Shown: piece after piece, positions 1-21,960 of the stretch
How positions within the stretch are numbered: the first letter of the stretch is position 1
Layout: every line of letters begins with the position of its first letter
Assembly (NCBI GenBank): GCA_937877715.1
Contig: CALEHW010000023.1
Location: 21,290 to 85,289, forward strand
DNA length: 64,000 nucleotides
Reading direction: 5' to 3'
Source: an uncultured Methylophaga sp.
GTDB taxonomy: Bacteria > Pseudomonadota > Gammaproteobacteria > GCF-002020875
Made by a program: the position numbers and the translations under genes
Notes under the pieces: generated by a model
Told to the model about the DNA's origin: nothing
The model's input: the letters and a program-made list of their open reading frames with translations, nothing else
Databases searched by the model: none

Positions 1-617
1 GTAAAAAAGAGGTTCAGGTCACCATTAACGGCAAACAGATATGTGTCCCGTCGACACTCTCTGTGATTCAAGCCTTGTGGCATGCTGGATACCCTAGGGT
101 GCAGGGAGTTGGCTGTCTGGAGGGTGTCTGCGGCTCATGTCGCGTTCTGGTGCGCCGCTCCGACACCCAGGAGGTAAGCATGGAGATGGGGTGCCAGACC
201 CTGGTTGAGGAGGGAATGGAGGTGATGTTTCTGGTCTTCCCCTCCCCATCACAGCACACCTACACTCTGGAGCAGATTCCCAACTCTTGGGAGGTTCAGA
301 CCGAATTTCATAAGATTTTTCCAGAGGCACAACAGTGCCGCAACTGTCACGGCTGCAGTGTTGCCTGCCCCAAGGGGATCAGTGTGGAAAAAGGGGTAGA
401 GCTCGCAGTCAAAGGGCGCTTCAAGGAGGCTGGTGACCTCTTTGTCGAATGTATTATGTGTGATCTCTGCATGACCGGCTGCCCTGAGCAGATCGCACCC
501 AATCGGGTCGGACTCTTCTCCCGCCGGGTAACAGCCTATTTTCACGCCCGCCCCTCAAATCTGATCAACCGGCTTGAGAAAATCCGTACCGGCGAACTGC
601 AGATCATAAAAGAGTAG
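1..617 (+). CDS. Iron-sulfur subunit, SdhB/FrdB-like. N-terminal 2Fe-2S domain plus two Cys4 ferredoxin motifs. 5' end lies outside the window.
   Basis: Frame 3 is open from position 3 to the TAG at 615-617. It contains VQVTINGK...GCLEGVCGSCRVLV (a 2Fe-2S motif of the type found in SdhB and XDH small subunits), then CRNCHGCSVACPKG and CIMCDLCMTGCP. The CPKG motif is typical of succinate dehydrogenase/fumarate reductase Fe-S subunits. It sits directly upstream of the FrdA-like gene. Confidence 0.7.
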   Translation, partial: KKEVQVTINGKQICVPSTLSVIQALWHAGYPRVQGVGCLEGVCGSCRVLVRRSDTQEVSMEMGCQTLVEEGMEVMFLVFPSPSQHTYTLEQIPNSWEVQTEFHKIFPEAQQCRNCHGCSVACPKGISVEKGVELAVKGRFKEAGDLFVECIMCDLCMTGCPEQIAPNRVGLFSRRVTAYFHARPSNLINRLEKIRTGELQIIKE

Positions 618-620
618 CAC

Positions 621-3511: not shown

Positions 3512-3767
3512 AAATCCGGGGAGAAAATACCCCTGACAATCTTCGGTGAAATCCCACTAAAAATCGGGTAACTTCTGGCTATTTTCGTCAAACTAACGCG
3601 ATCAAGCGCCATTATAACCCTCTCCGAACTTGATTTTTGGGTCCCTTTTGTGAGATCATGCGCGGCTATCACGGTTGATTGGTTAAGTATCACACAACGC
3701 CAACTCAACCAATTCATGGCAGAAATGGAAACAACTGCAACAAGCAGAATCTACGAGGGAATCGTTA

Positions 3768-5639: not shown

Positions 5640-5641
5640 TC

Positions 5642-6604
5642 ATGTTTGGAATCAAGGCAGACTGGTCCCTAGATATTCAGGAACGTTATTTCACTCTCGA
5701 TGATTATGAGGGCAATGAGGCACGCTGGTGTTCTGGTTGTGGTGATCATGCCGTACTGGCAACAGCCCACCGTATCCTGCGTGACGCACAGCTTCCACCT
5801 GAAAAATCTGTTTTTGTCTCAGGTATCGGTTGCTCCAGCCGTATGCCCCACTATATGGCTACCTATGGGCTACATGGAATCCATGGACGAGCCCTGCCAC
5901 TAGCATGTGGCGTCAAGTCACGCCGCCCTGATCTGGATGTCTGGGTTGCCACCGGAGATGGTGACTGTTACTCTATCGGTGCCGGTCACTGGATCCATGC
6001 TGTGCGATACAATATGGATATGACCGTACTGATTTTTGACAACCAGATTTATGGGCTAACCAAAAAACAGACATCCCCAACCAGTCCAATTGAACTAAAG
6101 ACCAACACCCACCCTGAAGGTGCCTCCCTGGATGCCATGAATCCCAACACAGTAACCCTGGGCATTACCAATGCATCCTTTGTGGCACAGGTGGTTGACT
6201 GGAACCCTCCCCTGCTACACGAGACACTCAAGGCTGCCCATGCCCACAAGGGAGCCAGCTTTGTACGCATCATTCAGCGCTGCCCGGTCTTTGTCGACTC
6301 CATCACCAAGGAGCTACAGGAAGATGCCTCACGTCTGCGGCTACTGACTCATGAGAATGGTATCCCGGTTGCCAAGGGGGTCGAAAAACTGTTCCCGGAT
6401 AGCGTAGAGCATGATCCGTCAGATATGGCAGGGGCACTCAGAATTGCACGAGACGAGACCGAAAAAGGGATTATTCCGGTTGGACTTCTCTACCAGAACC
6501 AGAACATCCCCTGTTACAGCGACCTCTCTGGTCAGGGCGTTGAGACTACAGATGAAGAGAAGATTGCAGCAACCAATGCAGCATTGGATGTATTTGCAAT
6601 ATGA
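5642..6604 (+). CDS. korB: 2-oxoglutarate:ferredoxin oxidoreductase beta subunit (TPP-binding).
   Basis: 320 aa. WCSGCGDH is the characteristic Cys motif. TGDGDCYSIGAGHW...DNQIYGLTKKQ is the TPP GDG...N motif. Lies 3 nt after korA. Confidence 0.85.
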   Translation: MFGIKADWSLDIQERYFTLDDYEGNEARWCSGCGDHAVLATAHRILRDAQLPPEKSVFVSGIGCSSRMPHYMATYGLHGIHGRALPLACGVKSRRPDLDVWVATGDGDCYSIGAGHWIHAVRYNMDMTVLIFDNQIYGLTKKQTSPTSPIELKTNTHPEGASLDAMNPNTVTLGITNASFVAQVVDWNPPLLHETLKAAHAHKGASFVRIIQRCPVFVDSITKELQEDASRLRLLTHENGIPVAKGVEKLFPDSVEHDPSDMAGALRIARDETEKGIIPVGLLYQNQNIPCYSDLSGQGVETTDEEKIAATNAALDVFAI

Positions 6605-9069
6605 GTAGCGCACCCTCCCTTCCTGTTCTCAAGTCAACTCGACCGGACCCAAAGTCCGAGGCCGCCATTCTGCGAACACTCCACCACTTCCATCTGGGAG
6701 ACCCCAGCGTGGAACAGGAGACCAGAGAGATCGGCAGCGACTACCTGCCAGCACTGTTGAATCCATTTCGTGACGCCTCCAAACTACGTTATGACTATCC
6801 ACTGATTCTCTTCTCCAGAGACTCGAAGCAGGATATTGCGCAGCCACTTACCTTATTTCTACAAGAGTCTGTCGCAGAGTTTGCCCCTGGGGAGAATAGT
6901 GCACGCATCCTCAAGGATAATCTCACCTGGCTAGAGCACGCTATTCGCAGCGAAATTACAGATAGTGAGAGACCAATTGGTCTCTCCCCAATCATGCAAC
7001 GTGCAATCGAGGCGCTACAGCAGCACCTATCTCTCTCGGGCGAAAACAAGGATAAACTGCAGAACGATCTTGACCAGCTACAAAAACAGTTTACTGATCA
7101 GGACAAGTTTCTCACCTACAATCGCTACACTGCAATCCATCTGATGATTCATCTGATCCATGGAAGATCAGAGGAACGCTGGGATGAATTTGAGAGCGAG
7201 CTTGAACAGCTACAACAACAACTGTCAAAAATACTGGAGATTGAGCAGAGCAAGTCCAAAGAGGCAATGGGTGCAGATGCTATGCAGAAAAGCGTAGGCA
7301 GCAGCGCATCCCGATTCAATCCTGAGGCTCTCTCATCTATTCTTCCCCATAGTGCCGGCACAGTGGCAATGTCGGATGAACGAAAGGAGCGTATCAGCCG
7401 CGCTGCAGAGACTCTAGACCAATTCAACCGTGACCCCATTCAGGTGCACTTCATCCATACTGGAGACTTCTCTGGGGATTGGAGTGATAGCAGTGTACAT
7501 TTCAAAACCACTATCGACGCAGACCCATGCCACAAGGCAGCGGAACTATTCGATGAGGAGGCCAATAATCTGGCAGAACTGTTCAGTGCCTGCAGGATTG
7601 CGCGCCTAGAAATAAACAACAGCTATGATCCCATTGTGCATGATCCATGGTTTGCCAATTTTAACTGGGAGGCCTTCTCTGAAGAGGAGTTATTGCTGGT
7701 TCCAGCAATTGTTGCCTTGGAGCCTGCCGATAGGCTGGGACATGAAGGACTAAACTCGTTTTCTCAGTTATTGGGGTCGGGCAGGCCAATTCAGATCCTC
7801 AGCCGAGTCAAGGGGCACAGCAACCCGGCAGCCACTGAAGATGAATCTCCATTTCATGATTTCCGTCTGGAGCTGGGATACCTCGCAACAGCCCACCGCC
7901 AATGTTATGTCGCCCAGACCTCAGCAGCACGTTACCAGCATCTAATGCAGGGCTTCCTTGAAGCGACAGAGATACCACGGACCGGGGTACATCTAATTAA
8001 CACTGGAATTCAGCATGCCGATGACGACTTCCTGATGGACCCATGGATGGTTGCCAGTGCAGCCCTCGAGGGACGTGTACACCCCTTCTTCCGGATGAAT
8101 CCAGAACGGGGAGACACCTTTGCAGAGCGCATGGATTTCAGCATAAATCCGCAGCCGGAGAGAGACTGGGCGACCCACCCTTTCAGTTACAAAAACGAGT
8201 CCGGTGAGGTTACCCATACCGAATTCGCATTCACCTTTGCCGATTACGCACTACTGGTTCCACGCCTACAAAACCATTTTCGCCTGATTCCAGATGACTT
8301 TGAATCAGACTCTCTAACCCCTATTGCAGAGTATCTTGACTGCTCCAATGAGGAGAGTTTCTCACTAGTACCGTTTGTCTGGGCCATCAATGAGGACAAT
8401 ATTCTTCACAGGGCAGTAGTCTCACGCGAACTAATCCTTGCCTGCAAGGACCGCCTCAACTACTGGCACACCCTGCAAGAGCTATCTGGAGTTCGGAACC
8501 TACATGCAGAGCAGGCCGTAACTGAGGCTCAGCTGCTTATGGAGGCAAAACAGAACAGTGTAATCAGCGAACTAAATGCCGCACATGATAAGGAGATCAA
8601 CCAACTCAGAGCCGATGCAACAACCGAGGTGATGGGGAAACTGGCCCAAGTATTGATGGGAATGAATCTTGGGGCAAGATCGAGCGACCTTGAACATGGA
8701 TTCTCCTCTCCTCCCCCCACAGAGGCAGTCCTCCAAACTCCAGATAGTGAACCGACCAAGGTAAGTAAGGAGGAGGCCAAGGATCAGGTTACGGAAGAGG
8801 AGCCTGAAGCAGAGATTTCGGAAGACCCATGGATTGAGTCTATTCTATGCACTACCTGCAATGACTGTACTGACATGAATCCTCAGATGTTTGTCTACAA
8901 TGATGACAAGCAGGCCTATATTGCCGACCCTAATGCCGGAACCTATGAGGAGCTGGTCGAGGCAGCAGAGATATGTCCCTCACGCTGCATCCATCCCGGC
9001 CTTCCGCTCAACAGTAGTGAGCCCAACCTAGATGAGCTGATCGAGAGAGCAGCCCCCTTCAATCAGTAG
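6601..9069 (+). CDS. Large uncharacterized protein. N-terminal approx 330 aa are unknown and helical. The central region resembles PFOR domain VI but has no GDG motif and no proximal-cluster Cys. The C-terminus is a single [4Fe-4S]/[3Fe-4S] ferredoxin domain.
   Basis: 822 aa. Overlaps the korB stop as ATGA. The region ...YVAQTSAARYQHLMQGFLEATEIPRTGVHLINTG...HPFFRMNPERGDTFAERMDFSINP aligns by eye to the PFOR C-terminal region (YVAxVSMG...PGPSLxIAYSPC...WPLYRYNPxxxxxGKNPFxLDS). The C-terminal CTTCNDCTD...FVYNDDKQAYIADPN...CPSRC is the pattern of single-cluster ferredoxins (Pyrococcus/Thermotoga Fd type). It shares the helical motif AHDKEINQLRAD with the 1286-aa protein (GHQQEINNLRNQ). Confidence 0.6.
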   Translation: MSSAPSLPVLKSTRPDPKSEAAILRTLHHFHLGDPSVEQETREIGSDYLPALLNPFRDASKLRYDYPLILFSRDSKQDIAQPLTLFLQESVAEFAPGENSARILKDNLTWLEHAIRSEITDSERPIGLSPIMQRAIEALQQHLSLSGENKDKLQNDLDQLQKQFTDQDKFLTYNRYTAIHLMIHLIHGRSEERWDEFESELEQLQQQLSKILEIEQSKSKEAMGADAMQKSVGSSASRFNPEALSSILPHSAGTVAMSDERKERISRAAETLDQFNRDPIQVHFIHTGDFSGDWSDSSVHFKTTIDADPCHKAAELFDEEANNLAELFSACRIARLEINNSYDPIVHDPWFANFNWEAFSEEELLLVPAIVALEPADRLGHEGLNSFSQLLGSGRPIQILSRVKGHSNPAATEDESPFHDFRLELGYLATAHRQCYVAQTSAARYQHLMQGFLEATEIPRTGVHLINTGIQHADDDFLMDPWMVASAALEGRVHPFFRMNPERGDTFAERMDFSINPQPERDWATHPFSYKNESGEVTHTEFAFTFADYALLVPRLQNHFRLIPDDFESDSLTPIAEYLDCSNEESFSLVPFVWAINEDNILHRAVVSRELILACKDRLNYWHTLQELSGVRNLHAEQAVTEAQLLMEAKQNSVISELNAAHDKEINQLRADATTEVMGKLAQVLMGMNLGARSSDLEHGFSSPPPTEAVLQTPDSEPTKVSKEEAKDQVTEEEPEAEISEDPWIESILCTTCNDCTDMNPQMFVYNDDKQAYIADPNAGTYEELVEAAEICPSRCIHPGLPLNSSEPNLDELIERAAPFNQ

Positions 9070-9076
9070 CAAACTG

Positions 9077-9940
9077 ATGAATAGCTTGCTTGCCTCTCCA
9101 GCCATCATGATGGGAATTGGCCTCTTCTTTGGGGTGATTCTTGCTGTGGCCTACCGCCTGCTAAAGGTGGACGAAGACCCAAGAATTGATGAGACCGAGG
9201 AGATGCTGCCCGGCACCAACTGTGGCGCCTGTGGTGTCCCGGGCTGCCGCGCCTTTGCCGAGGAGCTGATCAGGGGCACTGCCGAACCGAGTCAGTGCAC
9301 GGTTGCCCCCAAGGATGAGATCGTGGAGATTGCAGATTTTCTCGGAGTTGATGCAGGATCACAGATCAAGCGGGTTGCCCGCCTCCACTGTGCCGGCGGC
9401 AAGGCCGAGGCCTGGCAGATTGCAGAGTACCGGGGGTTTGACAGCTGCCGTGCGGCCGCCGTGGTATCCGGTGGCGGCAAGGGGTGTTCCTGGGGATGCC
9501 TTGGGCTGGCCGACTGCGAGATAGCCTGCAATTTCGATGCTATCCATATAAACAGTAATGGACTACCTGTAGTAGATCCGGAGAAATGTACAGCCTGTGA
9601 GGATTGTGTTGTTGCATGCCCCAAGGATCTCTTCAAGATCCATCCTGTCAACGAACACCTGTTTGTGCAGTGCAGTGCCCCTCTGGAGGGGGACGCCATC
9701 CTCTCTCTTTGCAGTGCCGCCTGTGACAGCTGCAGCCGTTGTGCCTCAGACTCCAACCCTGGCCTAATAGAGATGGTCGACGGACTACCCGTTGTTGACT
9801 ACAGCAGCGGGGCCGAAGAGAGTCCCGATGCTACCTGGCGCTGCTCAACCGAGGCCATTATCTGGCTTGATGGTGGACAGTTTGATCAACAAAACCAAAA
9901 CATGACCGAAGGTCAGAAACGTTATGCCCAGCTTCGCTGA
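9077..9940 (+). CDS. rnfB: Rnf electron transport complex subunit B (polyferredoxin).
   Basis: 287 aa. N-terminal membrane anchor followed by LPGTNCGACGVPGCRAFAEEL, the RnfB signature. Multiple CxxCxxCxxxCP motifs downstream. Confidence 0.85.
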   Translation: MNSLLASPAIMMGIGLFFGVILAVAYRLLKVDEDPRIDETEEMLPGTNCGACGVPGCRAFAEELIRGTAEPSQCTVAPKDEIVEIADFLGVDAGSQIKRVARLHCAGGKAEAWQIAEYRGFDSCRAAAVVSGGGKGCSWGCLGLADCEIACNFDAIHINSNGLPVVDPEKCTACEDCVVACPKDLFKIHPVNEHLFVQCSAPLEGDAILSLCSAACDSCSRCASDSNPGLIEMVDGLPVVDYSSGAEESPDATWRCSTEAIIWLDGGQFDQQNQNMTEGQKRYAQLR

Positions 9941-12900
9941 AATTGCCAACCGCATCTATCGTAAAGTTCTCGGTGTAGATGGCACCGTGGGGGAAGACAA
10001 GAACAGCATCTCTGTGCTGCTCGATGGTGCCACCGCAGTGGCCACTGTCGAGGCGATACTCTCCGAGGCTGCAGCCAGTGGCGAAACCTTCCCTCCAGAG
10101 AGGGGATCAAGTGCCTGGCGTAGCGAACAGCAGCGCCAGCAGGTAAACCTGTTCGGAAAACCACTGCTACAGATGGAGAGTAACACCCCTCGCGGCTCTC
10201 TCTCTGCCGCCATGGGTCTTGCAATGGCTGGCAGACGAGCTTTCTGCAGCCTCTGGTCGAGCGATCTTGCCGCCTCACAAGATCTGGTTCGCAGAGCAGT
10301 TGGCCGCCACCTGCCACTGGTTATCCATACCATTAATCGTGCACTCCCTCTAAACGGAGAGAGCCTTGGCGGAAGTGATGAGGGAATCCACCAACTGACA
10401 AATAGTGGGGCATTCATCCTCTTTGCCGAGAATGGTCAACAGGCAGTTGATTTCACTCTGATCGCCCGTGCCGTTGCAGAGCGAGCCCTGGTTCCCGCAA
10501 TCGTGGTCATGGATGGTGACGAGACTGCATTTGCATCTCAACAGATCGATCTCCCATCTCCTGAACTGATTGAAAAACTTATCGGCAACAGCTCCGACCC
10601 CATATCAATTGCTGACCCGGCACAGCAGCTGCTGTTTGGTGATGAACGCCGCAGGGTGCCGGGCTGGTACAGCCTGGACCACCCCACCCTGCAGGGGAGT
10701 TATCGTGACCGCCACAGCTTTGGAACTGGAGCGGTCTCTCACACCACCTTCTTTGGAAAACAGGTTAAGGGAATTCTGCATGAAATCTTTGGTGAGTTTG
10801 CAGACTTAACCGGAAGAAACTACAGCTCCCTTAACTACCATGGTAAAAAAGGTGCAAGGAAGATAGTAATCACCCAGGGAGCCATTACTGGACGCTGCCG
10901 CACAATTGTCGATCTATTGCAGAAGAGAGAGAAGATCTCGATCGCGGTTGTTGGAATAGGGACTACTGCCCCCTTCCCTGCCGCAGAGCTGGGAGAAATT
11001 CTACAAAATTGCCAGGAGATCACCCTGTTCGATCGCAGCGAACCTCTGCTAAACGAGCTCCCTCCACTGTACAGTCAGGTGGCCCCACTCATTCCAGCTA
11101 ACTGCAGATCCGCATCCATCATTTATGGGGTTGGCGGAACCCCAGTCAATGATGCCGACCTGATCGCCGCCTGCATGGCTCCACACAACAGATCAGCTGG
11201 TGAAGTCCCCGTCTACCGAATGGGAATAACCACACTAGCCGACAATAGCAATCCAAAACAGCAGGTACTCAGGGATCTGCTGGAAAGAAACTATCCACAG
11301 CTGGCAGAGCTGGGAATCAGAGAAGAAGATTCTGCCGCAGAGGAGAGCCCAGCAACACCATCCGTCTTGCGGGCATCCGCAGGAGGCGAAACGCCCACCC
11401 ACCGGACGCCAATGGCGGTACGACACCTTGGCAAACAGGGTGGTGTCGGCCACGCTGGATACCACAACCTGTCACGATTCTGGGATCAGACCGGTCTGCT
11501 CTATCGGGATGGAATGGAGAGTAGACAGGGGGTTGATCCATTTGCTGCCGCTGCTCACATACCACCACTGACATCAACATTTTCCAGCGTTGGGGATGGA
11601 TCCATTCCATTCTTCAATCCGGAAAACTGTAGTGGATGTGGCAGCTGCTGGAGCAACTGCCCAGACAGCGCTATTGGCGCCGTCTCCATACTACCCAGCA
11701 AACTACTGGAATCAGCCCTACAGATGGGAGGAGCAGATGCACTACGCCCACATCTCTCCGAGCTATCCAGGGAAATAAGCCTTACTACCGAAAGTGGAGA
11801 GGCTGGCACTATTATCCGAAAGAGCTGGGATACGATAATGGAACAGTCCCCTCTTTCAGAGGAGAGAAGAGCCAGTGCCGAGGATGCCATAACAACACTT
11901 ATCTCTAATATCGGCGCCCTCCCGGTTGCCCATACAGAACCACTATTCCATCAGCCGGAACGGCTTAAGGCTCAATCAGGTGAACTACTCTCTGTGGTCA
12001 TCAACCCTGATAGCTGTAAGGGGTGCGGAATATGCACCCGCCTCTGTCAGGATGAGTCTAATCGACAGGAGATTGAAAATCCCGCCCTCACCATGATGGA
12101 GCAGGATAGTAAAGATAGAGAGAACAGTTATCACACCTGGAGCATCTGGGAACAACTCCCAGATAGTGCCTCAACCACACTGGTCAATTATGGGACATAT
12201 CCCGATATAGGTCAGCTCAATGCAACCATGCTCTCTCGCTACGCCTCCATGACCATGGCTGGTGGAGATTCTGCAGAGCCAGGCTCTGGAGAGAAGATTG
12301 TTGTTCGTCAGCTACTGGGGATTACTGAATACCATCAACAACCACTTGTTCGTCAACTTCTCAAGGAGATGGATGAGAAACAGAGTGGGCTGGTTGCAGG
12401 GATTCGCGAAAAACTGGCTACAGCATCCCATGCAGATGATCTCTCTCTTCTGGCAGAGGGGCTGGGGAATCTATCCAGTCGTCAGCTTGATCTAACCACC
12501 CTGGCAGAAAAAACTGCTGGTATTGAGGGTGACAGTGTAGATGCCCACGAGCTGAAAGAGTGGGTAGAGCTTGCCGAATCCATTCGCATAGAAAAGGAGA
12601 AGATCGAGAAGGGAGAACACTCTCTGGGACGTGCTCGCTACAGTCTGGCCTTCGCCTCGGGAACCGCTGCCACCTGGGCTGGCACCTTCCCCTACAACCC
12701 ATTCCAGGTTCCGGTAGTAATTGGAGAGGCTGGGGAGATCGGGGCTCTGGCCTCAGGATTGATGGAGGGACAACTAGAGCAGACAACTGAAGTCCACCGC
12801 CTTCTCCGCAAGGCAAAGGCCTTGCTCAAGGGGAGACTTCCTGCCGAGCGCAAGGAGATAGACAAAACAACATGGGGAGACCTTACCGCAGATGAGCTGC

Positions 12901-13784
12901 AACAGTGCCCTCCCATGCTGCTTATTGGGAATGACACTACACTGGGTGCAGGATCTGCCGGTGAGCTCAACTGGATTCTCAACAGCAGGCTCCCCATCAA
13001 GATTATCGTGCTGGCAGAGATGGATCTTGGCTTTAGCGAGGCTCATGCAGACTCCAGATCAGAGCTTGCCATGGCTGCCCTCTCCCAACGCGGTGCATAT
13101 GTGGCCCAGTGCTCCATCGCGGCACCAGAGCAGATGAACCGAGCAATGCGTGAGGCCCTAAACTACCCAGGCCCTGCACTATTGCGGCTCCACGCCCCAA
13201 GCCCACAACGCCACGGATTTGGCCCCGAGATGACTACTGTCCAGGCAGAACGAGCAGTAAATGGACGTGCCTTCCCACTATTCAGTTACAACCCGGAGGC
13301 AACAGGGGTGTTTGGTACCCGCATCAGCCTTGGGGGCAACCCGGAGAGTGAGATCTCCATCGCAGAGTGGGCCTTCCATGAGGGGCGCTTCTCCGGACAA
13401 TTCCAACCCTTATCTCCTGCACTGCAGAGCCAATCTGCAAATCTTGAGGAGTGGCTCAAACTGGATGAGAGGGGGCAAAACAACAAGACACCAATATTCA
13501 ACGAGTATGCAATCGAACCGGATTTTGCACGTCGACTGGGGCAACTTGTCGAACAGTGGCAGATGCTGCAGGAGCTGGCCGGTATCGTCACCCCATTTAC
13601 CGAAGATGTCAGAGAGCAGGCAGACAAGGCAATTGCTGAGAGTCACCAAAGAGAAATTGACGAGTTGAAAAAGGGACACCAGCAGGAGATAAACAACCTG
13701 CGCAACCAACTGGAATCCGAGATTACCCAGAGGATTACCGAACGCCTAGTTGCACTAACTGAAACCCAGAAAAAACCAAACTAA
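9924..13784 (+). CDS. Divergent pyruvate:ferredoxin oxidoreductase (PFOR/NifJ)-like protein. It keeps the two-cluster ferredoxin domain but apparently lacks the proximal-cluster cysteines. It has an insertion of about 170 aa and a coiled-coil C-terminal tail.
   Basis: 1286 aa. Domain-I-like region DGATAVATVEAI...MGLAMAGRRAFCSLWSSDL...LPLVIHTINRAL matches PFOR DGNTAxAHVAYA...HGALAAGALTTTFTASQGL...LPGVFHVSARA. Ferredoxin domain CSGCGSCWSNCP + CKGCGICTRLC (8 Cys). Domain-VI-like region IGNDTTLGAG...YVAQCSIAAPEQMNRAMREALNYPGPALLRLHAPSPQRHGFG...FPLFSYNP. The positions of the PFOR proximal-cluster ligands (GACxGCGE, ATGCSS, SPC) read AGGDSAEPGS, ASGTAATW and SPQ. Confidence 0.65.
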   Translation: MPSFAEIANRIYRKVLGVDGTVGEDKNSISVLLDGATAVATVEAILSEAAASGETFPPERGSSAWRSEQQRQQVNLFGKPLLQMESNTPRGSLSAAMGLAMAGRRAFCSLWSSDLAASQDLVRRAVGRHLPLVIHTINRALPLNGESLGGSDEGIHQLTNSGAFILFAENGQQAVDFTLIARAVAERALVPAIVVMDGDETAFASQQIDLPSPELIEKLIGNSSDPISIADPAQQLLFGDERRRVPGWYSLDHPTLQGSYRDRHSFGTGAVSHTTFFGKQVKGILHEIFGEFADLTGRNYSSLNYHGKKGARKIVITQGAITGRCRTIVDLLQKREKISIAVVGIGTTAPFPAAELGEILQNCQEITLFDRSEPLLNELPPLYSQVAPLIPANCRSASIIYGVGGTPVNDADLIAACMAPHNRSAGEVPVYRMGITTLADNSNPKQQVLRDLLERNYPQLAELGIREEDSAAEESPATPSVLRASAGGETPTHRTPMAVRHLGKQGGVGHAGYHNLSRFWDQTGLLYRDGMESRQGVDPFAAAAHIPPLTSTFSSVGDGSIPFFNPENCSGCGSCWSNCPDSAIGAVSILPSKLLESALQMGGADALRPHLSELSREISLTTESGEAGTIIRKSWDTIMEQSPLSEERRASAEDAITTLISNIGALPVAHTEPLFHQPERLKAQSGELLSVVINPDSCKGCGICTRLCQDESNRQEIENPALTMMEQDSKDRENSYHTWSIWEQLPDSASTTLVNYGTYPDIGQLNATMLSRYASMTMAGGDSAEPGSGEKIVVRQLLGITEYHQQPLVRQLLKEMDEKQSGLVAGIREKLATASHADDLSLLAEGLGNLSSRQLDLTTLAEKTAGIEGDSVDAHELKEWVELAESIRIEKEKIEKGEHSLGRARYSLAFASGTAATWAGTFPYNPFQVPVVIGEAGEIGALASGLMEGQLEQTTEVHRLLRKAKALLKGRLPAERKEIDKTTWGDLTADELQQCPPMLLIGNDTTLGAGSAGELNWILNSRLPIKIIVLAEMDLGFSEAHADSRSELAMAALSQRGAYVAQCSIAAPEQMNRAMREALNYPGPALLRLHAPSPQRHGFGPEMTTVQAERAVNGRAFPLFSYNPEATGVFGTRISLGGNPESEISIAEWAFHEGRFSGQFQPLSPALQSQSANLEEWLKLDERGQNNKTPIFNEYAIEPDFARRLGQLVEQWQMLQELAGIVTPFTEDVREQADKAIAESHQREIDELKKGHQQEINNLRNQLESEITQRITERLVALTETQKKPN

Positions 13785-13816: not shown

Positions 13817-14995
13817 ATGAACCTCCACGAATACCAATCCAAACAGCTCTTTGAGCAGGTAGGCATCCCCATCCCCAAGGGCAAAACAGTTGAGAGACTG
13901 AATGATGTAGAGCAGGCAGCAGATGAGATTGGCGGCTCTGCATGGGTTGCCAAGGCACAGGTTCATGCCGGCGGCCGCGGCAAAGCCGGGGGGGTCAAAA
14001 TTGCCAGCAGCAAGGATGAGCTTGCTACATTCACCAATGAGATGCTTGGTGGAACCCTGACCACCCCACAGACTCATGGCCGGGCACTACCAATTCAGAA
14101 AGTCCTGATCGAGCAGACCCTGGATATCGGTCGCGAACTCTATCTGGGCGCACTGGTTGACCGCGATCGCGAACAGATTGTCTACATGGCATCCGCTGCA
14201 GGTGGCATGGATATCGAGCAGGTTGCCGCCGAGACACCGGAGAAGATTCTCACCGTACATGCCCACAGCGCTGCCGGTCTACAGCCTTACCAGTGCCGTC
14301 AACTGGCGTTTGGTCTCGGACTGAAGGGAAAGCAGATTGGTGCGCTTACTCGTATCCTCAGCGGACTCCATATCCTATTCATCCATAACGACCTGAGCCT
14401 GGTCGAGATCAACCCCCTGATCGTTACGGTGAGTGGGGAGTTACTGGCACTGGATGCAAAGATTAACCTTGATGACAACGCTCTATATCGCCATCCCAAA
14501 CTGCAGGAGCTGCATGACCCATCTCAGGAGGACGCAAGGGAGCTGGAGGCGGGCAAGCATGACCTCAATTACATTACCCTGGATGGCAATATTGGTTGCA
14601 TGGTAAACGGTGCAGGCCTGGCAATGGCCACCATGGATCTTATCAAGCTCCATGGTGGAGACCCGGCAAATTTCCTCGATGTTGGTGGAGGCACAACCGC
14701 AGAACGGGTAGCTGCCGCATTCAAACTAATCCTCAGTGACTCCAAGGTAGAGGCCATTCTGGTAAACATCTTTGGCGGCATTGTCCGTTGTGACCTTATC
14801 GCCGAGGGGATTATCACTGCAGTAAAAGAGGTGGGAGTAGAGATACCGGTAATTGTCCGCCTCGAGGGGACCAATGCCCCTCAGGGGATGGAGCTATTGA
14901 AAAAGAGCGGCCTTGATATTGATGTCGAAGAGACCCTGACCGGCGCCGCCAAAAAAGCAGTCGCCTCCACCACGTCAACAGGAGAAGGGGCATGA
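13817..14995 (+). CDS. sucC: Succinyl-CoA synthetase beta subunit (ATP-grasp).
   Basis: 392 aa. [12 protein letters not shown]...[17 protein letters not shown] is a near-canonical SucC N-terminus. Confidence 0.9.
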
Positions 14996-15879
14996 GTATC
15001 TTGATCAACGCAGAGACCCGCGTCATCGTACAGGGATTTACCGGAAAACAGGGTACCTTCCATGCCGAGCAATCCATCGCCTATGGCACCAATATTGTCG
15101 GTGGCGTCACCCCCGGCAAGGGTGGCCAGAGCCATCTTGATCGACCCGTATTCAATACCGTAGCTGATGCGGTGACAGAGACTGGTGCAGATGCCACCAT
15201 GATCTATGTCCCCGCAGCCTTTGCTGCCGATGCAATATTTGAGGCCGCCTCGGGTGGAATCAAAACCATTGTCTGCATTACCGAGGGGATCCCGGTTCAG
15301 GACATGATCAAGGTTAAAGCATTCCTGAGCGACTACCCCGATACCCACCTTATTGGACCCAACTGCCCCGGCATCATCACTCCAGGTAGCAACAAAAATG
15401 GCTGCAAGATTGGAATCATGCCAGGAAATATCCACCAGGAGGGCTCCGTAGGAATCGTCTCCCGCTCCGGAACACTCACCTATGAGGCAGTATTCCAGAC
15501 CACCAATGAGGGGCTGGGACAAAGCACCTGTATCGGAATTGGTGGAGATCCGATTCATGGCATGAACTTTATCGACTGCCTGGAGCTATTCCAGCAGGAT
15601 GAGCAGACCAAAGGAATTGTTCTGGTTGGCGAGATTGGCGGCAGCAAGGAGGAGGAGGCTGCCGAATATATCCGCAACAGTGTCACCAAGCCGGTAGTTG
15701 CCTATATTGCCGGAGTTACTGCACCTCCAGGACGAAGAATGGGCCACGCCGGTGCCATCATCTCCGGCGGCAAGGGTACAGCCGAGGACAAGATAGCCGC
15801 ACTCGAGGCTGTCGGGGTAACAGTCTCCCGCTCCCCGGCCGAGATTGGCAAGCACATGGCAGAGCTATTAAATAGCTAA
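14992..15879 (+). CDS. sucD: Succinyl-CoA synthetase alpha subunit.
   Basis: 295 aa. Rossmann CoA-binding N-terminus [12 protein letters not shown]. Phosphohistidine loop [15 protein letters not shown]. Overlaps the sucC stop as ATGA. Confidence 0.9.
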
Positions 15880-15888
15880 CCAGTTGAT

Positions 15889-17238
15889 ATGGGCCTTCTC
15901 TCAAGCTTCAAACGCAGCTTTTCTCACGGTGTACATCCTGCCCACTACAAGGGGCAGACCGAGAATCTCGCGATTCAACGTGTCCCTTTTGGCAATCGCT
16001 ATGTGATGCCACTAGGACAGCACATTGGGGCGCCAGCAATTGCTGTCGTCAACAAGGGGCAGCATGTCGGTCGAGGTGAGCTGATTGCCAAGCCAGGAGG
16101 GTTCATCTCAACAGCACTCCACAGTCCAGTCACAGGAACAGTCACTGAGATCTCCCCGCAACGAACCCTGGATGGATCCTTCAAGCCTACAATTGTGATT
16201 GAGGCAGATCCATTCTCCGCACAGAGAGTTGAGACCACCCCACCCGCCTCATGGGAGGAGTTATCTATTGAGGAGTTCATCGAAACAGTTCAGCAGGCGG
16301 GAATTGTTGGGATGGGAGGCGCCGCCTTCCCCAGCCACGTCAAATACTCGATTCCAGATGGTGCACATATTGATGATCTTCTGGTCAATGGTGCCGAGTG
16401 TGAGCCATTCCTAACCAATGACCACCGACTGATGGTTGAGCGTCCCGAGACGGTAATTCAGGGAACAGAGATCCTGCGGCAGAAACTGGGGGCAAAACGG
16501 GCCAATATCGGGATCGAGAGGAATAAACCAGAGGCGATAAGAGCACTGGAAAAAGTTCTGGAGAAGAGTCCATCCCTGCCTATTACGCTATCCCCGCTGG
16601 AGGTCAAATACCCTCAGGGCGCAGAGAAGATGCTGATCCAGTCTGTCTACCGCAAAGAGGTTCCGGCGGGCCAGCTCCCCAGAGATATTGGGGTTGCCGT
16701 CAATAATGTAGGAACCGTTGTAGCCATTGCAGACCTGTTTGCGACCGGTGCCCCACTCATAGAGCGCGTTGTTACCGTCTCCGGACCGGGAATCGATCAA
16801 CCTGCAAACCTGATGGTGCCACTTGGTACACCAGTTCGTGACCTACTCAGTTTCTGTGGCGGGCTCAACGATAAGACTCGCGAGATCATTATGGGCGGAC
16901 CGATGATGGGGTTTCCCATCACCAGCCTGGATGTACCAATACTGAAGGGCAGCTCCGGAATTCTTGCATTCACCGAAGAAGAGACAGCACGCCCACATGA
17001 ATACCCGTGCATCCGCTGTGGCCGCTGCCTGGAGGCATGCCCCTATTTCCTCAACCCATCTCGTCTGGCGCTGTTGAGCCGTAACCGACGCTACGAAGAG
17101 ACTATGGATTATCACGTAATGGATTGTGTAGAGTGCGGGGCCTGCAGTTTTGCCTGCCCCTCAAATATCCCAATAGCTCAGTTGATCAGAACAGCCAAAG
17201 ACAATCTCAGGCAAAACCCTGTAGAGGAGGCTGCATGA
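15889..17238 (+). CDS. rnfC: Rnf complex subunit C (NADH/FMN-binding, 2x[4Fe-4S]).
   Basis: 449 aa. GMGGAAFPSHVKY (NuoF-like FMN/NADH motif). CIRCGRCLEACP and CVECGACSFACP. Confidence 0.85.
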   Translation: MGLLSSFKRSFSHGVHPAHYKGQTENLAIQRVPFGNRYVMPLGQHIGAPAIAVVNKGQHVGRGELIAKPGGFISTALHSPVTGTVTEISPQRTLDGSFKPTIVIEADPFSAQRVETTPPASWEELSIEEFIETVQQAGIVGMGGAAFPSHVKYSIPDGAHIDDLLVNGAECEPFLTNDHRLMVERPETVIQGTEILRQKLGAKRANIGIERNKPEAIRALEKVLEKSPSLPITLSPLEVKYPQGAEKMLIQSVYRKEVPAGQLPRDIGVAVNNVGTVVAIADLFATGAPLIERVVTVSGPGIDQPANLMVPLGTPVRDLLSFCGGLNDKTREIIMGGPMMGFPITSLDVPILKGSSGILAFTEEETARPHEYPCIRCGRCLEACPYFLNPSRLALLSRNRRYEETMDYHVMDCVECGACSFACPSNIPIAQLIRTAKDNLRQNPVEEAA

Positions 17239-18251
17239 GCAAGAGAGATCCAGACCTTCTCCTACAGTCTGCGCCACTGCTTAAACAGGGGCTGAGTGTG
17301 CCTACCGCAATGCGTGATGTCCTGCTGGCCCTGATGCCGGCACTATTTGCGGGATTCTGGTTCTTTGGCCTCAGCGCCATTCTTGTGGTTGCAGCAACCA
17401 TTCTTGGTGCTATGGCAACCGAGTGGCTCTTCACCCCAAAACAGGAGCGGGCAGTTGCACTTGGTGACGGCAGCGCACTGCTGACCGGTCTACTGCTGGG
17501 AATGACTCTCCCCCCCGCCCTCCCTCTCTGGATGGCGTGGCTTGGCGGTGTGGTTGCAATTGGTCTTGGTAAAACCATCTGGGGAGGGCTCGGCAACAAC
17601 CTCTTCAACCCTGCCATTGTGGGACGTGCCTTCCTGCTGGGAACCTTTCCAATCGCCATGACCACCTGGCATGTGGCCGCAGGACCCGATTCATTCTTCC
17701 AGCTCCACCCCAGCACCCTTGCCCTCCCCTTCATGCAATCCCCCCCAATGGACGGGATGAGTGCAGCCACCCCACTGGGTCTGATGAAATTCGAGCAGAT
17801 CGACTCCCCGATCTTCTCCCTGATGTTTGGGAACAGCTCCGGCTCCCTGGGAGAGACCAGCGGGGTACTGCTGATGGTTGGTGGACTCTACCTGCTCTTG
17901 CGTCGCGCCCTGGAGTGGAGAATTCCCTTGGCAATTTTTATCTCTGCCGGACTCTTCACCCTACTGCTAGAGACCATAGACCCTGCACGCTTCCCCGGTA
18001 TACACTTCACCATCTTCTCTGGCGGAATGATGCTGGGGGCCATCTATATGGCAACCGACCCGGTCACCTCCCCGGTCACCCCCAAAGGGGCCTGGATATT
18101 CGGTTGTGGTATCGGGGTTCTGGTGGTACTGATTCGTAACTTCGGCGGGCTCCCGGAGGGAATACTCTATGCGATCCTACTCATGAATGCCGCCACACCG
18201 CTGATTAACCGCTACACTCAGCCCCGGGTCTTTGGCAGGAGCAGGTCATGA
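17235..18251 (+). CDS. rnfD: Rnf complex subunit D (membrane subunit with covalent FMN).
   Basis: Polytopic membrane protein. SAATPLG contains the FMN-attachment Thr. ATG at 17235 overlaps the rnfC stop as ATGA, so I prefer it to the longer ORF-track start at 17124. Confidence 0.8.
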   Translation: MSKRDPDLLLQSAPLLKQGLSVPTAMRDVLLALMPALFAGFWFFGLSAILVVAATILGAMATEWLFTPKQERAVALGDGSALLTGLLLGMTLPPALPLWMAWLGGVVAIGLGKTIWGGLGNNLFNPAIVGRAFLLGTFPIAMTTWHVAAGPDSFFQLHPSTLALPFMQSPPMDGMSAATPLGLMKFEQIDSPIFSLMFGNSSGSLGETSGVLLMVGGLYLLLRRALEWRIPLAIFISAGLFTLLLETIDPARFPGIHFTIFSGGMMLGAIYMATDPVTSPVTPKGAWIFGCGIGVLVVLIRNFGGLPEGILYAILLMNAATPLINRYTQPRVFGRSRS

Positions 18252-18943
18252 CAGAGCCGGCTGACCAGAGACCAAATAGCACGAATGAGGCTCCACCACC
18301 AGTGGTGATGGAGCCGAGCTCAATCAGACTTATCTCCACCCTGGCAATTGCCGGGCTTGTCTCCGGTATTGCAATTGTCGCCATCTATGAGGCCACCCTG
18401 CAGACCATCACCGAAAACAAGGCTCGAGAGCTGCGCGAGGCCGTATTTAAGGTGCTGCCAGGGGTTAGCAAGATGAAAAAATTTCAGCTTGAGGAAAATG
18501 GCATCCGCTTCCGTGCCGAAGAGGGCAAGGATGAAAATACCATATATGGGGGATACAACCAGCAGGGAGAATTTGTCGGTTATGCCCTCCCCAGTGCCGG
18601 TCCCGGCTTTCAGGACACTATCGGAATACTCTACGGGTACATCCCGGAGTCCCGCAAGGTTGTGGGAATGGAGATCCTGGAGAGCCGTGAAACCCCGGGG
18701 CTGGGAGACAAGATATACAAGGACCTCTCCTTCGTCTCCAATTTTGATAACCTCTCCATCGACCCTGAGATTGTCACCATCAAGAAGGGGATGAAAAGTG
18801 CCGCCAATGAGGTAGATGCCATTACCGGGGCAACCATCTCCTCCAAGGCAGTTGTTCGCATCATCAACGAGGGTAACGAACGCTGGATAAACCAGCTTCC
18901 CACTTATGGGATCCCCCTACCTGAAGAAGGGAGTCCAGAATAA
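18248..18943 (+). CDS. rnfG: Rnf complex subunit G (periplasmic FMN-binding).
   Basis: 231 aa. N-terminal TM helix. ITGATISSKAV is the flavinylation motif. Confidence 0.8.
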   Translation: MTEPADQRPNSTNEAPPPVVMEPSSIRLISTLAIAGLVSGIAIVAIYEATLQTITENKARELREAVFKVLPGVSKMKKFQLEENGIRFRAEEGKDENTIYGGYNQQGEFVGYALPSAGPGFQDTIGILYGYIPESRKVVGMEILESRETPGLGDKIYKDLSFVSNFDNLSIDPEIVTIKKGMKSAANEVDAITGATISSKAVVRIINEGNERWINQLPTYGIPLPEEGSPE

Positions 18944-19596
18944 TGGCAAAAACACCAGAGAGCGTATACCAGGAGATGCTCAAGGGAATCTGGAGAGACA
19001 ACCCGGTCTTTGTCCAGGTACTAGGGATGTGTCCAATGCTGGCGGTCACCAACTCCGCAGTCAATGCACTGGCGATGGGGCTGGCCACATTCTTTGTACT
19101 GGTTGGCTCCAGCCTGCTGGTCTCGATGATGCGCAAGTGGATCCCCAAACAGGTCCGAATCTCCAGCTACATCATTATTATCGCCACCTTTGTAACCATC
19201 ATTGACTACACCCTACTGGCGCTGTTTCCCAAGATCCACAAGGAGCTGGGAGCATTCATTCCACTGATTACCGCAAACTGCCTGATCCTTGGGCGACAGG
19301 AGGCCTTTGCCTCACGCAACAGTGTCCGTTTTGCAGTGATGGATGCGGTGGGCATGGCGGGGGGATTCCTCTTTGCCCTGCTGGCACTTGGTGGGGTACG
19401 CGAGATTCTCGGTGAGGGGGCGCTGTTTGGAGTATCCCTGTTTGGCCCCAATTTTGAGCCCTGGATAATCATGATCCTGCCACCTGGCGGATTCCTTACC
19501 CTGGGGTTAATTCTGCTCTTCTTTAACTGGGTTACAGAGAAGCACAAAGAGGCACAGATGCGTCTGCTACAGCCAGCTGAGGAGAGATCATCATGA
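18943..19596 (+). CDS. rnfE: Rnf complex subunit E (NqrD/RnfE family).
   Basis: 217 aa polytopic membrane protein. VLGMCPMLAVT and LITANCLILG resemble the NqrDE/RnfAE conserved Cys helices. Confidence 0.8.
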   Translation: MAKTPESVYQEMLKGIWRDNPVFVQVLGMCPMLAVTNSAVNALAMGLATFFVLVGSSLLVSMMRKWIPKQVRISSYIIIIATFVTIIDYTLLALFPKIHKELGAFIPLITANCLILGRQEAFASRNSVRFAVMDAVGMAGGFLFALLALGGVREILGEGALFGVSLFGPNFEPWIIMILPPGGFLTLGLILLFFNWVTEKHKEAQMRLLQPAEERSS

Positions 19597-20186
19597 TGAC
19601 AGATGCCGCCTTCCAGCACTTTCTCTGGATATTTATCAGTGCCCTGCTAGTCAACAACTTCGTGCTGGCCTACTTCCTTGGACTCTGCCCCTTCCTGGGC
19701 GTATCCGGAAAGCTTGAGACCTCATTCAGGCTTGGTCTTGCCACCACCTTTGTACTGATCATCACCGCCATCTGTGCCTGGATACTCAACACCTACGTAC
19801 TTCCCCACGCCCCCTACCTGCGGCTGATCAGCTTTATTGTGGTGATCGCCAGCGTGGTGCAGTTTATCGAGATGTTGATCAAGAAGCTGAGCCCGGCCCT
19901 GTTCCGATCACTTGGAATCTTCCTGCCACTGATCACCACAAACTGCGCCATCCTCGGACTCGCCATCTTTGCCACCAATCGTGAATATAGTTTTGCCGAG
20001 AGCATTATATTCGCCCTCGGTGCTGGCGGCGGATTTACCCTGGCGCTGCTGCTAATGGCAGGATTGCGTGAGGAGAGCGAACTCTCCGATGTCCCCACCC
20101 TGATCCGAGGCACCGCTTTCAACCTGATCATTGCGGGAATTCTCTCCATGGCCTTTATGGGCTTTGCCGGACTCTTCTCGTCATGA
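19593..20186 (+). CDS. rnfA: Rnf complex subunit A (NqrE/RnfA family).
   Basis: 197 aa. FLGLCPFLGVS and LITTNCAILG are RnfA-type motifs. Confidence 0.8.
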   Translation: MMTDAAFQHFLWIFISALLVNNFVLAYFLGLCPFLGVSGKLETSFRLGLATTFVLIITAICAWILNTYVLPHAPYLRLISFIVVIASVVQFIEMLIKKLSPALFRSLGIFLPLITTNCAILGLAIFATNREYSFAESIIFALGAGGGFTLALLLMAGLREESELSDVPTLIRGTAFNLIIAGILSMAFMGFAGLFSS

Positions 20187-20365
20187 TGGGATATATCCTC
20201 TCCATTCTTGCACTGATCGCCCTGCTGGTTGGATGGGTACTGTTTCAGCAGTGGCTGAAGAAAAAAGATCCAGAGCAGTTCGGATACAAACCCGGCTGTG
20301 GTGCCTGTGCCAGCAAGGGGAGCTGCTCAACCTCAGGCAATAAGCATCAAAAAAAACACAACTAA
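20183..20365 (+). CDS. Small single-TM protein with a C-terminal GCGACxxKGSC cysteine cluster. Resembles NqrM (DUF539), the Na+-NQR maturation factor.
   Basis: 60 aa. Overlaps the rnfA stop as ATGA. Hydrophobic N-terminal helix followed by KPGCGACASKGSCSTSG. Confidence 0.5.
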   Translation: MMGYILSILALIALLVGWVLFQQWLKKKDPEQFGYKPGCGACASKGSCSTSGNKHQKKHN

Positions 20366-20380
20366 ACAGATAGAGACAGC

Positions 20381-21319
20381 ATGAGTTTACAGACAAGAAA
20401 AATTGCACTCGTTGGTGGTGGCCAGATCGGTACTGCACTGGCCCTAATGATCACCCAGAAAGACCATGCGGAGGTAGTAATTGTCGACCTCCCAGATGCG
20501 GTCGACCCCATCAAGGGCAAGGCTCTCGACATCATGGCACTACGCCCACACGCCGGGGTGGATGTAGAGATCACCGCTACCAGCGACTACAGCGAGATTG
20601 CCGATTCCGAGGTAGTAATTGTTACAGCCGGGATTCCACGCAGGGCCGGCATGACCAGAAATGACCTGCTGGAGATAAATCTTGGGGTTATCAAATCTGT
20701 TGCCAAAGAGGTTGCTACTCACGCCCCCAATGCCTTCGTTGTACTCTCTACCAACCCTGTCGACACCATGTGCCAGGCCTTCCAACACTACTCAGGATTT
20801 CCAAAGAACCGAGTAATTGGACTCTCCGGGGCACTCGATAGCGGTCGATTCCGACTCTTCATTGCGATGGAAACTGGCTTCTCAGCCAAAGATGTTTCAT
20901 GCATGGTGATGGGAGGTCACGGCCCTGCAATGATTCCTCTGACCCGCACCGCAACCGTTGGTGGCATTCCAATCCAGACTCTACTTTCTGATGAAAAGAT
21001 CGAGGAGATCGTCGAGCGTACCCGTCAAGCTGGAACCGAGATCGTGCAACTACTTGGACAAGGCAGTGCCTACATCAGCCCCGCATCAGCAATCATGGAG
21101 ATGGTCGAGGCCTACCTCTACAACAAGAAGCGGCTGATCGCCTCCTCAGTCCTCTGTGAGGGAGAGTATGGAATCGATAACTGCTTTATCGGCGTCCCCT
21201 GCGTTATCGGTGCCGGTGGAGTCGAGCGGATTGTAGAGATGGAGCTGACCGCAGAGGAGCAGGCCCAGCTCAACGAGAACTATCGCTCACTCAGAGAGAA
21301 TATAGAACGGATAGGTTGA
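20381..21319 (+). CDS. mdh: Malate dehydrogenase (LDH-like family).
   Basis: 312 aa. KIALVGGGQIGTALAL NAD fold. GIPRRAGMTRNDLL has the Arg typical of MDH substrate specificity. Confidence 0.9.
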   Translation: MSLQTRKIALVGGGQIGTALALMITQKDHAEVVIVDLPDAVDPIKGKALDIMALRPHAGVDVEITATSDYSEIADSEVVIVTAGIPRRAGMTRNDLLEINLGVIKSVAKEVATHAPNAFVVLSTNPVDTMCQAFQHYSGFPKNRVIGLSGALDSGRFRLFIAMETGFSAKDVSCMVMGGHGPAMIPLTRTATVGGIPIQTLLSDEKIEEIVERTRQAGTEIVQLLGQGSAYISPASAIMEMVEAYLYNKKRLIASSVLCEGEYGIDNCFIGVPCVIGAGGVERIVEMELTAEEQAQLNENYRSLRENIERIG

Positions 21320-21328
21320 TATTTAATA

Positions 21329-21394
21329 CGCTAGTCTCTAATTCCAAGTGCAACACCAATCGTAGGGTGTTGCACTTGGAATTAGAGACTAGCG
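21329..21394. repeat. Perfect 28-bp inverted repeat (hairpin with a 10-nt loop) between mdh and higA. Likely a bidirectional terminator or a REP/MITE-like element.
   Basis: cgctagtctctaattccaagtgcaacac ... gtgttgcacttggaattagagactagcg. The right arm overlaps the higA stop codon. Confidence 0.7.
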
Positions 21395-21682
21395 TGTCTC
21401 GATCATCATTGGTCGCGTATTAGACAAGTTAATAGTTTGGCTGGTTACCCACAATTCATAATTATCCTGCATGGCCAACCAGCTCTCTGGTGTCCTTCCG
21501 AGAACCTTTGATAATCTGAGAGCCATTTCTGGCGTTACAGAACTCCTCTCTTTTAGTACCCGATTCAAGGTTGATGCAGCTACACCAAGATGTCTGGCAA
21601 GATTACGGCCACTAATACCATTAGGCTCCATATAGACCGAGGCAATAAATTCACCGGGATGCGGGGGATTGTACATAGTCAT
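21389..21682 (-). CDS. higA: HigA-type antitoxin (XRE-family HTH).
   Basis: 97 aa. ...LGVAASTLNRVLKERSSVTPEMALRLSKVLGRTPESWLAMQ is the HigA/VapI HTH pattern. Directly downstream of the toxin gene. Confidence 0.8.
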   Translation of the reverse strand: MTMYNPPHPGEFIASVYMEPNGISGRNLARHLGVAASTLNRVLKERSSVTPEMALRLSKVLGRTPESWLAMQDNYELWVTSQTINLSNTRPMMIETR

Positions 21683-21960
21683 TAATGATAGTCCTCATAG
21701 TTCAAAATATAGGCATTACCGTCCCTAAATTCAAAGGTAATACGCCAGTTACCACTCACCGAAATGGACCAAATTCCTGATCGGCCACCTTTTAATTGGT
21801 GCAATCTGAAACCAGGCAGGTCGATATCATCAATCACCTGTGCGGTATCGATAGCGGCTAGTTGCATTCGTAATTTTTTAGAATGCTTGGATTGGACACC
21901 AACCGCTTTTCCGGATCGAAAAAATGTTTCCAGCCCCTTATGCCTGAATGTCTTAACCAC
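21682..21960 (-). CDS. higB: HigB-type toxin (RelE/ParE superfamily, 'plasmid maintenance system killer').
   Basis: 92 aa. MVKTFRHKGLETFF...LKGGRSGIWSISVSGNWRITFEF is a typical HigB. Toxin-first order with a 1-nt overlap to higA. Confidence 0.8.
   Translation of the reverse strand: MVKTFRHKGLETFFRSGKAVGVQSKHSKKLRMQLAAIDTAQVIDDIDLPGFRLHQLKGGRSGIWSISVSGNWRITFEFRDGNAYILNYEDYH

Follow-up and report, generated by a model that had tools for sequence, protein, structure and literature searches.

X, a small membrane protein with a cysteine motif encoded directly after rnfA in Rnf operons that carry a PFOR-like gene

Rnf operons encode ion pumps of the membrane, and the question raised by one such operon is what a very small gene at its rnfA end contributes to it. 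The operon lies in a window of 64,000 nucleotides from an uncultured Methylophaga sp. (contig CALEHW010000023.1, positions 21,290 to 85,289), where a short open reading frame (ORF) at 20183..20365 on the forward strand starts within the end of rnfA. This ORF and the protein family of its product are both called X here. An earlier, sequence-only reading had described X as an NqrM-like (DUF539-like) protein fused onto the end of an rnf operon. X represents a genuine protein family that had no name before, ancient and obligately linked to rnfA, and it is a dedicated component of one class of Rnf operon, in which a PFOR-like gene and rnfCDGEA precede X and rnfB lies either upstream or downstream.

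The product of X has 60 aa, MMGYILSILALIALLVGWVLFQQWLKKKDPEQFGYKPGCGACASKGSCSTSGNKHQKKHN. Its ATG at 20183 overlaps the TGA of rnfA at 20184-20186, an overlap that had been recognized in the sequence-only reading and that holds, the upstream ORF being identified as RnfA by TIGR01943. The resulting ATGA (20183..20186, +) suggests translational coupling of X to rnfA, and the distance between the two genes in related loci is typically -3 to about +25 nt. The description of X as fused onto the operon end was right in placing it after rnfA, but X is a separate gene, and it is not the last of its transcription unit because mdh (20381..21319) begins 15 nt after the X stop codon; the two are probably co-transcribed. 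Close homologs of 44-84% identity occur in gammaproteobacterial metagenome-assembled genomes with the same synteny as in the window. Comparison of the window gene with two relatives gives a ratio of non-synonymous to synonymous differences (pN/pS) of 0.19-0.26 over residues 1-50, at a pS of 0.5-0.6; X is under purifying selection, with only its extreme C-terminus free to vary. The gene has also been called independently by the NCBI, JGI and ENA gene callers.

The same small gene recurs far beyond this lineage. Eighty genome loci were gathered via RnfA, and 78 of them could be evaluated for a small ORF after rnfA, using a detector that requires an ORF of 35-110 aa with an N-terminal hydrophobic stretch followed by at least three Cys. 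An X-like ORF stands right after rnfA in 64 of these 78 related loci and about 450 nt downstream in a further two, whereas random positions trigger the detector in 10 of 1515 cases (0.7%). The occurrence of X is far beyond chance, because syntenic homologs, a low pN/pS and recurrence after rnfA well above the random-position rate all coincide. Carriers belong to at least seven phyla and include Gammaproteobacteria, Bacteroidota, Gemmatimonadota, Acidobacteriota, Planctomycetota, delta/Myxococcota-like bacteria and other lineages. A reverse survey, in which metagenomes were searched from X with a Bacteroidota-type alignment that covers this subtype only, yielded 41 loci, with rnfA directly upstream in all 38 that could be evaluated. 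The survey of rnf operons for a trailing small ORF that had been proposed alongside the sequence-only reading is thereby answered positively from both directions, with 64/78 RnfA-seeded and 38/38 X-seeded loci. An exhaustive hidden Markov model search of 1.84 billion representatives returned 432 members of X at E<=1e-3, of which 151 pass E<=1e-10, and all of these family matches are stand-alone proteins of 48-101 aa. The first 1.3 kb or so beyond rnfA yielded no X-like ORF in L016 (Candidatus Achromatium palustre), L017, L020, L021, L023, L026, L030, L040, L059, L065 and L071; in L026, apbE comes straight after rnfA. These related loci may represent natural losses of X or variants missed by the detector. 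The carriers of X include culturable aerobes (Flavobacteriia, Cytophagia), and Seonamhaeicola aphaedonensis, Flavivirga rizhaonensis, Shivajiella indica and Cecembia rubra are among the carriers that can be cultured, which makes deletion, tagging and reconstitution possible.

The anatomy of X is simple. X (20183..20365, +) is a single-pass membrane protein with a predicted cytoplasmic Cys motif, and the earlier description of a 60-aa product with one transmembrane (TM) helix followed by GCGACxxKGSC is borne out by the ORF, its translation and the AlphaFold2 model. This model contains a single helix at residues 2-28 (20186..20266, +), which has a predicted local distance difference test score (pLDDT) above 85, and a disordered tail. 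The motif is present as GCGACASKGSC, with the spacing C39-x2-C42-x5-C48 (20297..20326, +) visible in the sequence and in the family alignment. Five residues vary little or not at all across the family: W18 and Q22, where the helix meets the cytoplasm, and the three Cys C39, C42 and C48. Lys and Arg together average 0.12 per family member ahead of the TM helix, against 2.54 over the 15 residues that follow; from this bias X is predicted to adopt an N-out/C-in topology, which puts the Cys motif on the cytoplasmic side.

Members of the family are about 50-100 aa long and combine one TM helix with a CX2C...C motif containing three or four Cys. Most have four, the Bacteroidota type reading C-x2-C-x-C-x3-C, and the pattern C..C.....C is found in 120/125 and 105/149 family members. 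The window subclade has C-x2-C-x5-C and an invariant Ser44 (20312-20314) where other subtypes carry the extra Cys, the third of their four; this residue may be a Ser ligand, or the three-Cys site may be completed by a partner protein. In one close homolog, P0006, the first Cys is replaced by Gly (GGGACASKGSC), which is either a sequencing error or a sign that this Cys is dispensable.

The operon to which X belongs has a distinctive composition. In the window, rnfB (9077..9940, +) encodes a TM helix, PF04060 and two Fer4 domains (TIGR01944, 78.8 bits against a cutoff of 68.7). It is split from rnfCDGEA by a PFOR-like gene of 1286 aa (9924..13784, +; POR_N, PFOR_II, Fer4 and a weak TPP domain) and by sucC and sucD (13817..15879, +), which lie between the PFOR-like gene and rnfC; this sucCD insertion is a feature of the present gammaproteobacterial subclade. 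All on the forward strand, there follow rnfC (15889..17238), a family match with its FMN and Fe-S (iron-sulfur) domains kept; rnfD (17235..18251), whose ATG at 17235 overlaps the rnfC stop; rnfG (18248..18943), a family match; rnfE (18943..19596), a family match with both cluster Cys, in GMCPML and ANCLILG; and rnfA (19593..20186), which scores 243 bits against the TIGR01943 cutoff of 229 and has its cluster Cys in GLCPFLG and TTNCAILG. Beyond X lies mdh (+), also a family match. Cryo-electron microscopy structures place a [2Fe-2S] cluster between RnfA and RnfE (reviewed in PMC12174285), and RnfA and RnfE of the window retain the cysteines that hold it. The intramembrane Fe site that the sequence-only reading had deduced for Rnf is consequently real, but it was already established by those structures and is not a new inference.

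Across many phyla, about 60 of the 80 loci have a very large PFOR-like gene directly before rnfCDGEA; its product has 1286 aa in the window and 1647 aa in Seonamhaeicola. The shared layout consists of the PFOR-like gene, rnfCDGEA and X, followed by apbE or by an FNR-like gene with rnfB; in Flavobacteriia the order is PFOR-like gene, rnfCDGEA, X, FNR-like gene, rnfB. The flavin-transferase gene apbE directly follows X in 17 loci, mostly from Gemmatimonadota and Acidobacteriota. An FNR-like gene directly follows X in 13 rnfA-seeded loci; of the 41 metagenome loci found from X, 39 have it as the next gene or close by. It comes after X in essentially all Bacteroidota-type loci, and most X-seeded loci long enough to show this have rnfB beyond it. 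The FNR-like protein (L082, 10233-11090; L087-L126) has 285 aa and is of plant-type FNR/BoxA-like character with NAD_binding_1; neither a TM helix nor an Fe-S domain of its own was found in it. Taken together, X and the FNR-like protein formally resemble a split NqrF, with an anchor, a Cys site and an FNR module. The idea that this neighbour is a precursor of NqrF is not supported, as its best NCBIfam matches are BoxA and PetH-type FNR (119 and 115 bits), with 60 bits for NqrF, and neither is the idea that the clade is an intermediate between Rnf and NQR, since its RnfA reaches 195 bits with clostridial RnfA and 153 with NqrE. The recurrent gene order suggests an Rnf class hard-wired to a 2-oxoacid oxidoreductase and distinct from other Rnf, and no description of a PFOR-linked Rnf class was found in the literature searched.

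Searches of family libraries did not place X in any known family. With PF04400, the DUF539/NqrM model (gathering score 22 bits), neither the window X nor any of 65 family members was matched at E<=1, so that X is not a member of DUF539, to which the sequence-only reading had likened it. The sensitivity of the model was controlled with three NqrM-like sequences, which score 59-82 bits; a search with one of these returned 1197 proteins at E<=0.001, and the 120 listed among them carry a precomputed PF04400 domain, several being named NqrM by NCBI or UniRef. The RseC model PF04246 gives the window X 10.4 bits (E=0.62, gathering score 24.4) and reaches E<=1 in 2/65 members, and hhalign finds 0.7% over 15 columns between X and RseC. 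The sole Pfam model with repeated weak matches is PF12669, which reaches E<=1 in 18/65 members with a best value of 1.1e-6; the window X obtains 20 bits (E=8.3e-4), under the gathering score of 27. One UniRef entry in the X family carries the PF12669 family name, and no precomputed Pfam domain is present in the X family entries examined. NCBIfam holds no family for X, neither PF04060 nor the rnfB model matches it, and a PDB search with the X family profile found no chain resembling it. An RseC-like ORF is likewise absent from the window and from the 80 loci, as judged by phmmer with E. coli RseC.

With moderate confidence, X is read here as an accessory or assembly factor of Rnf that is analogous to RseC and NqrM and belongs to neither family. 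The TM helix would tether the Cys motif at the cytoplasmic face, near RnfA/RnfE and RnfB, where the motif may bind a labile Fe-S cluster or iron. In this way X could aid the electron-input side of the pump, namely the proximal cluster of RnfB and the intramembrane [2Fe-2S] of RnfA/E, which would be the kind of work ascribed to RseC in Rnf/Rsx and to NqrM in Na+-NQR. We infer metal binding, the interaction partners and a role in assembly rather than in structure; the assembly role is favoured because the motif is identical to that of RseC, apbE is adjacent and rseC is missing from these operons. Profile likenesses to NqrM (85%) and to the RnfB N-terminus (91%) that depend on residue order also speak for the proposal. 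Several considerations weigh against it. X falls significantly into no known family among PF04400, PF04246, PF12669 and NCBIfam. Its profile likenesses, all below 95%, stem from one TM helix and a brief Cys pattern, and convergence could account for them. The ATGA overlap with rnfA, and the constant place of X in Bacteroidota between rnfA on one side and the FNR-like gene with rnfB on the other, would also suit a stoichiometric structural subunit. Moreover, in V. cholerae and A. woodii the Rnf complex is assembled even when RseC is missing (PMC11729352), and therefore such a factor need not be essential. Finally, the window X has only three Cys, Ser44 replacing the fourth.

The main rival to an assembly factor would make X a seventh subunit that stays in the complex. 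Such a subunit would derive from the RnfB N-terminus, as a relic or paralog, and would carry an extra Fe-S centre or a metal-stabilised knuckle that docks the PFOR-like protein, the FNR-like protein or RnfB onto RnfA/E. Its appeal lies in the hhalign comparison of X with the RnfB N-terminus, which reaches 90.8% with the whole family and 87% with the three-Cys group of the window in an alignment that spans the TM helix, a 'DP' and the segment PG..CGAC...GxC (in RnfB, EDPRI...LPxxNCGACGxPGC). The real X profile scores 33-37 against NqrM and the RnfB N-terminus, compared with a mean of about 18 after shuffling of the tail, and at most 1 in 100 tail shuffles reaches the real score against the RnfB N-terminus. 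The genomic setting is compatible as well: X occupies the slot after rnfA in translational coupling with it, adjoins the FNR-like gene with rnfB beyond, and co-occurs as a family with the PFOR-like gene. Yet PF04060 does not match X, the fourth Cys ligand of RnfB is missing, a full RnfB is encoded in the same operons, and X persists in subclades without the FNR-like gene; nor does such a chain appear in any solved Rnf or NQR structure, though none of these comes from this clade. A seventh subunit is accordingly regarded as rather unlikely. True but divergent homology to NqrM (DUF539), with X delivering Fe or [2Fe-2S] to the RnfA/RnfE site as proposed in the sequence-only reading, would explain the matching build and topology, the apbE neighbour and the retention of all four cluster cysteines in RnfA and RnfE. 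For the X family, hhalign reports 85% to NqrM with a score of 32.7, above 100/100 tail shuffles (mean 17.9, maximum 22.5), in a control that shuffled only the tail columns and used an NqrM alignment of low diversity (effective number of sequences, Neff, 1.8). This signal comes from the Bacteroidota subtype (84%), whose C-x2-C-x-C-x3-C shares its last three Cys spacings with NqrM, whereas the window subclade reaches only 3% and 9.8%. Together with the empty PF04400 search (0/65 at E<=1 against 59-82 bits for the controls), the lack of CxxC in NqrM (0/120), a first Cys loop that differs by nine residues, and an Rnf here that stands no nearer to NQR than others of its kind do (RnfA with 195 bits against clostridial RnfA and 153 against NqrE), this makes homology to NqrM quite improbable.

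A third possibility starts from PF12669 and assigns X a general role in iron, metal or redox sensing that is not specific to Rnf. The repeated matches of this model (18/65) and the regulatory role proposed for RseC (PMC9124969) speak for it, but the window X stays under the gathering score, the motif and feoB context of PF12669 differ (PMC8749426), X follows rnfA wherever the context is readable, and it has no DNA-binding or signalling domain; such a role is very unlikely. That X might be a spurious reading frame overlapping the end of rnfA by chance would be in keeping with its shortness, its lack of database annotation and the lack of a strong Shine-Dalgarno sequence. The sequence-only reading had named absence from orthologous rnf operons as the sign of such an artefact, and the X-like ORF is instead present in 64/78 loci; its position, length, TM helix and Cys motif are kept across phyla, pN/pS is about 0.2 and the random rate is 0.7%, which refutes this explanation practically beyond doubt. 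A broader idea, improbable at present, makes X the seventh, clade-defining part of a hard-wired '2-oxoacid oxidoreductase-Rnf' machine not described before, composed of the PFOR-like enzyme, RnfB, RnfCDGEA and X, either with an FNR-like protein or lacking one. X would also be an evolutionary bridge between the RnfB N-terminus, the RseC motif and NqrM, hitherto regarded as unrelated. It builds on the profile of X, which matches both the RnfB N-terminus (91%) and NqrM (85%), while those two do not match each other (0.6% in hhalign). Were it true, all Rnf and NQR pumps would share an ancient and general need for small, membrane-tethered Fe-S carriers to build or feed their intramembrane [2Fe-2S].

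The operon is embedded in a larger island of reductive tricarboxylic acid (rTCA) cycle-like character, made up of fumarate-reductase-like, NuoF-like and korAB-like genes, a gene for an 822-aa protein, rnfB, the PFOR-like gene, sucCD, rnfCDGEA-X and mdh. Its upstream part contains an FAD fumarate-reductase-like gene (FAD_binding_2) and the NuoF-like gene (621-3511), followed by korA/korB-like 2-oxoacid:acceptor oxidoreductase genes (3768-6604). Between korB and rnfB lies the 822-aa ORF (6601-9069), whose sole match is a C-terminal Fer4_13; no Pfam or NCBIfam family was found in it beyond this single-cluster ferredoxin domain. An Fe-S protein gene is also present within the upstream stretch 63-9069. 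Immediately after mdh, a HigB-like toxin and helix-turn-helix (HTH) antitoxin pair is encoded on the reverse strand (21389-21960), and this pair is absent at the matching position of the syntenic locus L001. Such an island may let bacteria that are exposed to oxygen carry out reductive carboxylation at the expense of NADH and an ion gradient.

Set beside known proteins, X is, like the members of PF12669, a tiny peptide with one TM helix and a Cys-rich tail, but those proteins have the motif Cx3-5Cx2-3Cx6-8C and are encoded downstream of feoB or fused to it (PMC8749426), whereas X has a different motif and the neighbourhood of rnfA. In relation to RnfB, X occupies the slot after rnfA that rnfB takes in rnfCDGEAB operons; it ends after the third Cys, with no fourth RnfB ligand and no ferredoxin domains, its spacing is x5 as opposed to x4 in RnfB, and a complete rnfB coexists in X-bearing operons. 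X was also considered as a substitute for a missing RnfB, which is rejected by the presence of rnfB at 9077-9940 in the window and after the FNR-like gene in Bacteroidota loci. In Methanosarcina, the literature describes an unnamed extra gene after rnfB, RnfY (MA0665), for which a sequence link to X was not established.

The comparison with NqrM, whose features were taken from an alignment of real NqrM sequences and from a review (PMC12174285), reaches further. Both proteins are small, with one N-terminal TM helix, an N-out/C-in topology and a Cys-rich cytoplasmic tail, and the mean number of Lys and Arg residues before and after the helix is 0.12/1.96 in NqrM and 0.12/2.54 in X. Both are encoded in the 3' part of a pump operon beside apbE, the nqr order being nqrF-apbE-nqrM, and both pumps have a [2Fe-2S] within the membrane, bound by subunits that are homologous to each other, NqrD/E in one and RnfE/A in the other. 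X belongs, however, to Rnf operons and NqrM to nqrABCDEF-apbE, and NqrM has C-x11-C-x-C-x3-C with an invariant GSCGGLG and CPEPC, while the window X has three Cys in C-x2-C-x5-C; the first Cys loops differ by nine residues, and no CxxC occurs in any of 120 NqrM sequences. Of the NqrM architecture attributed to X by the sequence-only reading, the build, topology, operon side and apbE neighbour are therefore retained and the Cys motif and number are not. Judged by these features, X is NqrM-like in build, topology and operon position, and is not a member of DUF539.

RseC (RseC_MucC, a SoxR-reducing-system protein that corresponds to the RnfF N-terminal domain), an Rnf/Rsx-associated factor with the exact Cys spacing of X, had not been considered in the sequence-only reading. 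Its conserved CX2CX5C motif lies in a cytoplasmic, membrane-tethered domain and forms an Fe-S cluster that is sensitive to O2; RsxB and RsxD are interaction partners of RseC (PMC11729352). In acetogens, rseC lies directly upstream of rnfC, and it is required for Rnf-dependent autotrophy of C. ljungdahlii; a regulatory role has also been proposed for it (PMC9124969). The Cys spacing is identical in the two proteins, with C-SS-C-ASRAG-C in E. coli RseC and C-GA-C-ASKGS-C in the window X, and both are linked to Rnf/Rsx, for X by genomic linkage only. They differ in size and design, as RseC has about 140-160 aa with a soluble N-terminal domain, two TM helices and a C-terminal tail, and X about 60 aa with one TM helix; they also differ in gene position, X following rnfA and rseC preceding rnfC or being unlinked. 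No description of the X family, of its architecture or of its link to a PFOR-coupled Rnf was found in the libraries and literature searched. Membrane-tethered Cys-motif helpers of Rnf and NQR pumps are known as a kind of protein; among them, NqrM is known from NQR alone, and what RseC does is disputed. The assembly of the intramembrane [2Fe-2S] and of the electron-input side of Rnf is poorly understood, and X adds to RseC and NqrM a compact candidate for this task that is encoded within the operon itself.

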